DNA of 44,882 nucleotides from a virus (IMGVR_UViG_2872678658_000005:1-44882); one strand, 5' to 3'. Numbered from the stretch's first letter, positions 13,955 through 14,755 are shown. Numbers and translations: made by a program. Notes: generated from the sequence alone by a model not told the origin.

Positions 13955-13996
13955 AAGACCTCTTATTGAGGGGGTAATTGAATCAGTTTAATGTGT

Positions 13997-14027
13997 GGGG
14001 AGTCGATTTATTCTCCCCATTTTATTT
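13997..14027 (+). terminator. tR'-like terminator downstream of Q
   Basis: GGGGAG-loop-CTCCCC hairpin followed by ATTTTATTTAATTAATTT; candidate late promoter (TTGAGG...TTTAAT) in the 40 bp before it. Confidence 0.5.
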
Positions 14028-14038
14028 AATTAATTTAC

Positions 14039-14485
14039 TTAAGGTTTTAATTCATCAAGACGTTGTTGGATAGTGTTTTTGCTTGCGTTGTCTGTTATAG
14101 CCATTTGTTGTACTTGCCCCATTGCCATTTGAGTTTCCATCCACATATCGGCCCACACTTTTGTATCGTTATTAACTTGAGCGATAGTAAATCTGACTTT
14201 TGATACCGGGGTTGTTGAATAGGCATTGCCGATTAACATTTGTCCAAAAACGGCAGAGCCGCCTTCCAGTTCTTTACCACATATAACACTGCTGTTATCC
14301 GCGTTGTAAATTATCAACCCTCTACTATTGCAGTAATTCACAAGGGCATCTTTGACTTTATCTTTTGTCGTATTTTGATAAACCCCCTCAGGTTTTCCTG
14401 ATTGAGTTTTCTTTATCAATGGTACGGAAGAAGTACAACCTGAAATGATAGTTGCGCTAAGTAATAGTACAGTTATTTTATTCAT
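14039..14485 (-). CDS. lipoprotein of unknown function (moron, 148 aa)
   Basis: Signal peptide with lipobox MNKITVLLLSATIISGC; markedly AT-rich; antisense to the late operon between Q and the lysis genes. Confidence 0.7.
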   Translation of the reverse strand: MNKITVLLLSATIISGCTSSVPLIKKTQSGKPEGVYQNTTKDKVKDALVNYCNSRGLIIYNADNSSVICGKELEGGSAVFGQMLIGNAYSTTPVSKVRFTIAQVNNDTKVWADMWMETQMAMGQVQQMAITDNASKNTIQQRLDELKP

Positions 14486-14605
14486 GTTTCTTATCCATTG
14501 TTAAGGGCATACCCACACAATTATTTTTATTGGAGATGAATAATCAACCGTTTACAATCGTAAAAAATCAAATATGCTGTTAAGAGTGGTTACTTCGCCA
14601 CACAA

Positions 14606-14637
14606 CTTAAACCCGCCGCTGAGCGGTTTTTTTGTAC
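14606..14637 (+). terminator. candidate hairpin plus T-run
   Basis: AAACCCGCCGCTGAGCGGTTTTTTT; followed by GTACCTG, the same motif that follows the capsid-gene terminator at about 24544-24557. Confidence 0.35.
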
Positions 14638-14755
14638 CTGTAAACTTGGTGCAGTACAGTAAACACGCTGGTGGTCGTGAATACTGACTTTTTATCTTGC
14701 TGGCTTTTTAGACAAGAGTTATTGGTATGTCATGTTAATCAGAAGGGAAAAAGAC

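Follow-up and report, generated by a model that had tools for sequence, protein, structure and literature searches.

A selectively maintained lipoprotein moron between Q and the late promoter block of a lambdoid Escherichia coli prophage, with a candidate role in superinfection exclusion

The lipoprotein gene and its conservation

The 44,882-nucleotide stretch of viral DNA IMGVR_UViG_2872678658_000005:1-44882 (hereafter the window) is a lambdoid Escherichia coli prophage, and it carries a small lipoprotein gene between the gene of the antiterminator Q and the block with the candidate late promoter (Table 1). There is firm support for a genuine accessory lipoprotein gene, which is selectively maintained, was acquired as a moron and lies outside Q control. 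As such it is a new example of a familiar kind, the prophage lipoprotein moron. The open reading frame (ORF) is oriented opposite to Q and the lysis genes, and an identical coding sequence (CDS) is annotated in the RefSeq record of UTI89 as hypothetical protein WP_001033965.1.

The N-terminus of the product, MNKITVLLLSATIISGC, has all the parts by which bacterial lipoproteins are recognized, namely the positively charged n-region MNK, the hydrophobic h-region ITVLLLSATI and the lipobox ISGC, with the pattern [LVI][ASTVI][GAS]C matched at Cys17. The lipobox cysteine is aligned in 87 of 94 family members, where position -3 is mostly L, I or V and position -1 is G, A or S. In E. coli, the Lol-avoidance (+2) rule states that Asp at +2 keeps a lipoprotein in the inner membrane. 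Since the residue at +2 is Thr here and the 94-sequence alignment has A, V, S or T at this position and Asp in none, sorting to the outer membrane is predicted.

The gene differs in composition from its surroundings. Its GC content is 0.38 (0.33 at third codon positions, GC3) and that of the whole inserted segment described below is 0.367. The window has 0.502, Q has 0.438 and positions 14559-16162 have 0.483. When the AT-rich insert was shuffled, none of 2000 shuffles gave a stop-free run as long as the lipoprotein ORF. Full-length homologues with 50-72% identity are present in other Enterobacterales. In comparisons with six orthologues, the proportion of nonsynonymous differences (pN) is 0.18-0.32 and that of synonymous differences (pS) is 0.74-0.87, the synonymous sites being saturated. 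Thus, the gene is under purifying selection. The original prediction, which had been made from the window alone, had described a 148-residue lipobox protein antisense to the late operon and of a composition sharply unlike that of its neighbours, and both descriptions stand.

An inserted segment ahead of the late promoter block

The canonical late cassette consists of the Q gene, the late promoter pR', a sigma-dependent pause element, a terminator and the late genes (10.1101/651190). In phage Stx2_EH2201, whose Q is ~75% identical, a block of the form GTTAAGAGTGGTTACTT...CCGCC-loop-GGCGG-TTTTTT begins within ~40 nt of the Q stop. The same block is found in the window, where we provisionally place it at ~14559-14640, and similarity to phages that have a related Q begins again at ~14559-14563. 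It is common to the window, Stx2_EH2201, mEp460_4F5, cdtI and phiP27; its terminator part also occurs in Stx2c phages, mEp460, Ayreon and SfV, and the depositors of the last two annotated the terminator. On the left side, homology to QuuD-type Q ends at ~13948, the matches being confined to query positions 1-375, and this point is the left junction. Because the Q homology stops at 13948 and the relatives' block resumes at ~14559, the ~600 bp from ~13949 to 14558 are, judged by sequence comparison, extra DNA that was inserted between Q and this block.

The segment has its own candidate signals. The predicted lipoprotein promoter and the candidate pR' are arranged back to back, and the lipoprotein gene is not under Q control, since it is antisense and upstream of pR'. 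A GC-rich hairpin (13995-14020, or ~13995-14035 with its T-run), absent from Stx2_EH2201, folds with free energies of -13.0 kcal/mol on the plus strand and -11.2 kcal/mol on the minus strand (z -2.9 and -3.5). On the plus strand it has the form of an intrinsic terminator after Q; on the minus strand it lies past the lipoprotein stop and is without a U-run. A search of the region against Rfam gave no match. Two other assignments were ruled out. The hairpin at 13997-14016 is not tR', being in DNA that is missing from relatives and leaving no space for a promoter and pause site after the Q stop. A minus-strand promoter-like site at 14504-14475 (10 of 12 matches) is not the lipoprotein promoter, as its -10 element overlaps the start codon.

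The original prediction had called the gene a moron, and this is borne out: ~600 bp of extra, AT-rich DNA separate elements that form a direct junction in Stx2_EH2201, promoter-like and terminator-like signals accompany the gene, and its homologues lie at varied prophage positions. The homologues are also AT-rich relative to their flanks in five loci (L006, L007, L008, L009 and L012). The proposed location needs to be corrected. The gene had been put directly after a tR'-like terminator; that hairpin belongs to the inserted DNA, and the conserved terminator block is on the other side of the gene. The span proposed for the moron, 13955-14730, does contain it but also takes in the late promoter and terminator block. 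Nor is this the Shiga-toxin or bor-type cargo position, for the lipoprotein gene is antisense and occupies the Q-pR' interval, whereas stx2e of phiP27 lies downstream of the late block, a methylase and two tRNAs, and bor of phage lambda lies downstream of Rz. The gene is outside both the Shiga-toxin slot and Q control, so it is not cargo of the late transcript.

The segment is 100% identical in UTI89, NU14 and other genomes, and 99% identical in the induced phages PhiR40_1 and PhiR55_1. On the plus strand the gene order is KilA-N, DUF968/HNH, Q, the segment, a small phrog_331 ORF, a DNA methyltransferase, holin, endolysin and Rz/Rz1. The o-spanin Rz1 (17159-17365, plus strand), which lies in a different frame within Rz, is the sole other lipobox protein of the Q-to-lysis region and bears no relation to the lipoprotein described here.

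Table 1. Genes and signals from Q to the lysis cassette, in window coordinates
Feature	Position	Strand	Basis
Antiterminator Q gene, QuuD-like (RefSeq start = 13589)	13574..13954	+	Pfam PF06530 4.1e-51; RefSeq
GC-rich hairpin (GGGGAG..CTCCCC) flanked by A-tract and T-tract, within inserted DNA	~13995..14035	either	Terminator scan, folding
Lipoprotein CDS, 148 aa, WP_001033965.1, phrog_3152	14039..14485	minus	ORF call, RefSeq, PHROGs
Signal peptide, lipobox I-S-G-C (Cys17 codon 14435-14437, +2 = Thr)	14435..14485	minus	Sequence
Candidate sigma-70 lipoprotein promoter (TTGATT, 16-nt spacer, AATAAT), leader ~27 nt	14520..14547	minus	Consensus scan, 9/12 matches, prediction
Candidate late promoter pR' (TTTACA, 16-nt spacer, TATGCT)	14551..14578	+	Consensus scan; hexamers inferred, position inferred from relatives
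Late-leader block shared with relatives, with a tR'-like terminator at its end (stem 14615-14627 followed by seven T)	14559..14640	+	Comparison with relatives
Small phrog_331 ORF, first after terminator	14756-14959	+	
DNA methyltransferase	15110-16162	+	
Lysis cassette: holin, endolysin, Rz with embedded Rz1	16230..17406	+	

Fold and family of the lipoprotein

No family of Pfam (E <= 0.01) or NCBIfam is matched by the lipoprotein. PHROGs gives a single, full-length match, to phrog_3152, a family listed there as of unknown function, and sequence searches of the PDB with the single sequence and with a profile return noise only. That the family could not be assigned had also been stated in the original prediction, and this holds after the profile and structure searches proposed there. 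The family is nevertheless large: an exhaustive profile search yields 823 cluster representatives at E <= 1e-3, 408 of them at <= 1e-10.

The mature protein has ~131 residues. An AlphaFold2 model built with 21 homologues (predicted local distance difference test, pLDDT, 85.4; predicted template modelling score, pTM, 0.76) has a beta-alpha-beta-beta-alpha-beta-beta-beta-alpha domain. In Foldseek searches of the PDB the top matches are TBP-like, DUF4468 and the N-terminal domain of BamC, none at E <= 1e-3, and the viral database BFVD gives no match at E <= 1e-3. Among bacterial structures, those closest to the model are the helix-grip domains of BamC, a lipoprotein of the beta-barrel assembly machinery (BAM), Flpp3/DUF3568 and DUF4468. 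The modelled domain resembles BamC, KA1 and TBP-like domains in fold, and homology is not demonstrated: identities are 5-12%, there is no Foldseek match at E <= 1e-3 and no Pfam or PDB profile match. The BamC, Flpp3/DUF3568, DUF4468/TBP-like and KA1 domains have no single function in common. Conserved across the family are Cys17, T-x-S-G-x-P-E before strand 1, Cys52, Cys69, the loop IGNxYSTxP and the strand motif WxETQMxxGQ. A disulfide between Cys52 and Cys69 is likely.

Some family members are fused to other modules. C-terminal PDZ domains are present in 15 of 94 sampled members, for example in proteins named 'PDZ domain-containing protein' of Xanthomonas, Stenotrophomonas and Sphingomicrobium, and there are single cases with TPR/YfiO(BamD)-like, SH3_3 or SHOCT modules. 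In Xanthomonadales and Sphingomonadales, many PDZ lipoproteins encoded on islands resembling integrative and conjugative elements (ICE-like islands; P0234, P0238, P0239, P0244 and others; L015-L017 and L021-L024) have the lipoprotein domain as their N-terminal half. This domain is without a Pfam model and is a candidate for the definition of a new domain family. The UniRef name 'VirB7' of a Xenorhabdus homologue was dropped, since neither a type IV secretion context nor a Pfam match supports it; the name was probably assigned automatically on the strength of the lipoprotein signal.

Genomic contexts of the homologues

Every close homologue is part of a prophage, and the positions vary. In Salmonella the gene lies between gpK and gpI/J, and in Jejubacter the stretch from gpK to gpJ is filled with genes, the homologue among them. 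In Citrobacter and two metagenomic contigs it is found between the tape measure gene and gpM. The Phytobacter homologue is in an early region, while that of Enterobacter is on a P1-like element. A scan of reference genomes with a narrower alignment returned homologues in 13 species only, a partial taxonomic picture, and these include Photorhabdus, Morganella, Proteus, Haemophilus, Xenorhabdus, Halomonas and Sphingosinicella. The commonest Pfam families among the neighbours of these 13 are tape measure (6), gpK (5), gpL, gpM and gpI (4 each) and Mu Gp27 (3).

Distant members that were sampled lie beside AlpA, HNH and capsid genes together with Rap1a, in an AlpA-primase-HicAB setting, or with integrases and a PriCT_2 primase. 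Others are on ICE-like islands with ArdC, DUF5906, an S24/Y-polymerase cassette, H-NS and AbiJ. Wherever its setting was examined, the lipoprotein gene is cargo of a mobile element.

The interval between Q and pR' as a cargo slot

We compared the interval between Q and the late block in phages with a QuuD-type Q (loci L003, L025-L027, L052, L067 and L068-L070). The slot is empty in Stx2_EH2201 and holds the antisense lipoprotein gene in the window. In mEp460_4F5 it is occupied by an antisense gene of 308 codons and in cdtI by two antisense genes, one of them DUF6731. A membrane protein and a Transgly-domain protein are encoded there in L067, and an antisense AAA_15/HEC-04 OLD-like ATPase (3.9e-47) in L068-L070. 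In phiP27 the occupant is L22, which matches PD-Lambda-1 at 2.1e-89. Several occupants are therefore antisense, as the lipoprotein gene is. On this comparison, the Q-pR' interval is a variable cargo slot in phages with a QuuD-type Q.

Among 39 IMG/VR loci with the Q allele of the window (at least 98% nucleotide identity), all 35 that reach the conserved block carry the lipoprotein gene, and in 34 of these the gap from Q to the block is 601-606 bp. The remaining one, L052, has an added plus-strand gene of 420 codons between Q and the lipoprotein gene (L052:4783-6045), which is without a Pfam or PADLOC match; this extra gene shows that the slot goes on gaining cargo. The Q allele and the lipoprotein gene occur together in 185 of 5426 complete E. 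coli genomes.

A second antisense lipoprotein right after Q was seen in locus L072, whose Q allele has 85% DNA identity. Next to it come an antisense Blc-like lipocalin gene (Lipocalin_2, 5.5e-44; L072:4549-5073) and then apparent host genes. By their Q allele, L071-L107 are probably alike, L072 being the one that was examined.

Other features of the window

Rfam matches to isrK (67 bits, 8077-8153, plus strand) and C4 antisense RNA (83.6 bits, 8178-8265, plus strand) are adjacent to each other within a region annotated as a Rha-family/anti-repressor-like gene. This pair suggests a c4-ant secondary immunity module of the P1/P7 style in this lambdoid prophage. At the left end of the window a tRNA gene (1369-1441, plus strand) adjoins an ORF of 387 codons (1459-2622, minus strand), and the tRNA is probably the integration site if this ORF is an integrase. 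UTI89 has an integrase at the left end of an otherwise matching prophage, arranged differently, so the window may derive from a different strain.

Discussion

For the lipoprotein gene described here a role as a lysogenic-conversion factor is plausible. We suggest, tentatively and short of confidence, that its most likely role is envelope-level superinfection exclusion, a candidate function read from sequence, location and family. According to this proposal, positions 13949-14558 would be a self-contained cassette, horizontally acquired and placed between Q and the Q-dependent late promoter. The lipoprotein would be transcribed antisense to the late genes, probably from its own predicted promoter and independently of the lytic programme. 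Its product would be processed by Sec, Lgt and LspA and sorted by Lol to become an outer-membrane lipoprotein with a single compact alpha+beta domain, probably held by the Cys52-Cys69 disulfide. The invariant loop IGNxYSTxP and the strand WxETQMxxGQ might then bind a conserved component of the envelope or of an incoming phage. In this way the lipoprotein could interfere with adsorption, or with the periplasmic passage of the tail tip, tape measure or DNA of another phage.

We favour superinfection exclusion because the product is, by prediction, exported and lipid-anchored, because phages, satellites and islands carry the family throughout Proteobacteria, and because the Q-pR' slot of relatives holds validated or candidate defence genes. 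It is also favoured because the gene is repeatedly placed beside tape-measure and tail-tip genes, as is the case with HK97 gp15 and Cor/Llp. Together, the defence genes in the slot, the carriage on mobile elements and the association with tail modules point to phage exclusion and not to virulence.

Several observations weigh against this proposal. No characterization of the family was found in the literature, where the paper on PhiR40 and PhiR55 uses those phages as test phages only. Searches of Pfam, PHROGs, BFVD and the PDB gave nothing that points to Cor, Llp, Bor, TraT or Ltp, and no family of PADLOC-DB 2.0 is matched. Guilt by location is an argument by which defence genes are sought, but it is weak for the Q-pR' slot, most of whose occupants have no known function. 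P1-like phages, satellites and ICE-like islands are among the carriers of the gene as well, and the fusions to PDZ, TPR and SH3 modules would suit a general periplasmic adaptor equally well. Finally, the receptor-binding C-termini of J differ among five carriers. A Cor-like coupling to one receptor-binding protein was rejected on this ground, and since the J ends differ and the carriers are varied, Cor-style masking of the phage's own receptor is unlikely in a simple form.

Bor of lambda and BorD of DLP12 are products of a prophage lipoprotein moron of ~97 residues that confers serum resistance. Like Bor, the protein studied here is a small lipobox lipoprotein encoded by AT-rich DNA antisense to a lambdoid late operon, and its expression is likewise predicted to be independent of the lytic programme. 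Unlike Bor, it has 148 residues and gives no Bor match in a Pfam scan, and its gene lies upstream of the lysis cassette and not downstream of Rz. The lipoproteins Llp of T5 and Cor of phi80, N15 and HK022 cause superinfection exclusion by blocking FhuA. These phage outer-membrane lipoproteins are often encoded beside tail or receptor-binding genes, as the present homologues are in tail modules, and they are our working functional model. They are, however, much smaller than 148 residues, there is no match to them in sequence or structure (phrog_3152 only in PHROGs; none at E <= 1e-3 in BFVD), and the carriers of the present family have no common J end. HK97 gp15 is an inner-membrane moron within a tail module that depends on the tape measure of the incoming phage, and Ltp of the Streptococcus phage TP-J34 is a lipoprotein that targets the tape measure. 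Both are envelope-acting prophage morons that block DNA entry through the tape measure, and homologues of the present gene adjoin tape-measure genes. Yet gp15 is not a lipoprotein, Ltp acts in a Gram-positive host, and neither is among the Foldseek matches. PD-Lambda-1 and the HEC-04/OLD-like ATPases occupy the same slot in related phages but are cytoplasmic nucleases or ATPases, whereas the lipoprotein is predicted to be exported and lipid-anchored.

Other explanations must be weighed against superinfection exclusion. A host-directed lysogenic-conversion factor of the Bor/Iss/TraT type would be an outer-membrane lipoprotein that aids the lysogen in the animal host through serum resistance, adhesion or intracellular fitness. 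We consider this quite unlikely, though lambda bor is a precedent and the exact allele is found in extraintestinal pathogenic strains such as UTI89 and NU14. The allele is also present in isolates from river water, yak, pig and dog, a Pfam scan places the protein in neither the Bor nor the TraT family, and the family reaches Halomonas, Sphingomonadales, Xanthomonas, Photorhabdus and Haemophilus on phages, satellites and islands, a pattern that is not pathogen-specific. One weak lead for a host role is UTI89_C5108, which appears with an rLogFC of 1.57 in a promoter-trap list of fragments induced in bladder cells (PMC5404293). This is probably the lipoprotein gene, an assignment reached by counting locus tags on from UTI89_C5101 (yfdN2) and unverified, and the differential fluorescence induction sequencing (DFI-seq) list is regionally clustered and without replication. 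Another reading makes the protein a periplasmic binding or adaptor module by which the envelope is protected or remodelled against an attack that does not come from phages. Such a module might inhibit a peptidoglycan hydrolase or a type VI effector in the manner of an immunity protein, or it might be an anchor through which a periplasmic protease or an outer-membrane assembly factor is recruited or inhibited. The PDZ domains in 15 of 94 relatives, the single TPR/YfiO(BamD)-like, SH3_3 and SHOCT fusions, the nearest bacterial folds (BamC helix-grip, Flpp3/DUF3568 and DUF4468) and the immunity genes Rap1a and Imm11 close by in two loci are in line with such a module, which we nonetheless hold to be distinctly improbable.

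A role in the phage's own lytic cycle seems less probable again. Here the lipoprotein would be made late, together with the tail genes, and would save progeny virions from being lost on lysed cells by masking receptors or debris of the envelope, the antisense copy of the window being a displaced version. Most stand-alone homologues are indeed co-oriented inside tail operons beside the tape measure, gpM, gpK and gpI. T5 Llp offers a precedent, a masking of this kind being reported as its second role (PMC9586334). However, the gene of the window is antisense and upstream of pR', so it is outside the late transcript; copies on satellites and ICE-like islands have no tail genes with which to be co-expressed; and the J termini differ between carriers. 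That the segment is passive DNA without current function is very unlikely indeed. No phenotype is known, and prophages hold many orphan ORFs, but the low pN against saturated pS, the full-length conservation with invariant motifs and cysteines in 94 diverse members and the 823 cluster representatives all speak against it.

The proposal of superinfection exclusion can be made more specific, in a form that we regard as rather unlikely. The lipoprotein would then be the founding E. coli member of a large unnamed family of mobile-element lipoprotein domains, stand-alone or fused to PDZ, which block the delivery of siphophage genomes in the periplasm by acting on the incoming complex of tape measure and tail tip. 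If this is true, the family would be a Gram-negative functional counterpart of Ltp and gp15, and its frequent placement beside the phage's own tape-measure gene would be explained.

If the lipoprotein does not act in exclusion, it is one more conserved hypothetical prophage gene. If it does, a widespread and structurally new family would join the short list of phage-exclusion lipoproteins that act at the envelope, and it would provide a handle on a poorly understood step, the periplasmic phase of siphophage DNA delivery. The Q-pR' gap of lambdoid phages with a QuuD-type Q would then be a hotspot of defence genes and other cargo that is worth mining.
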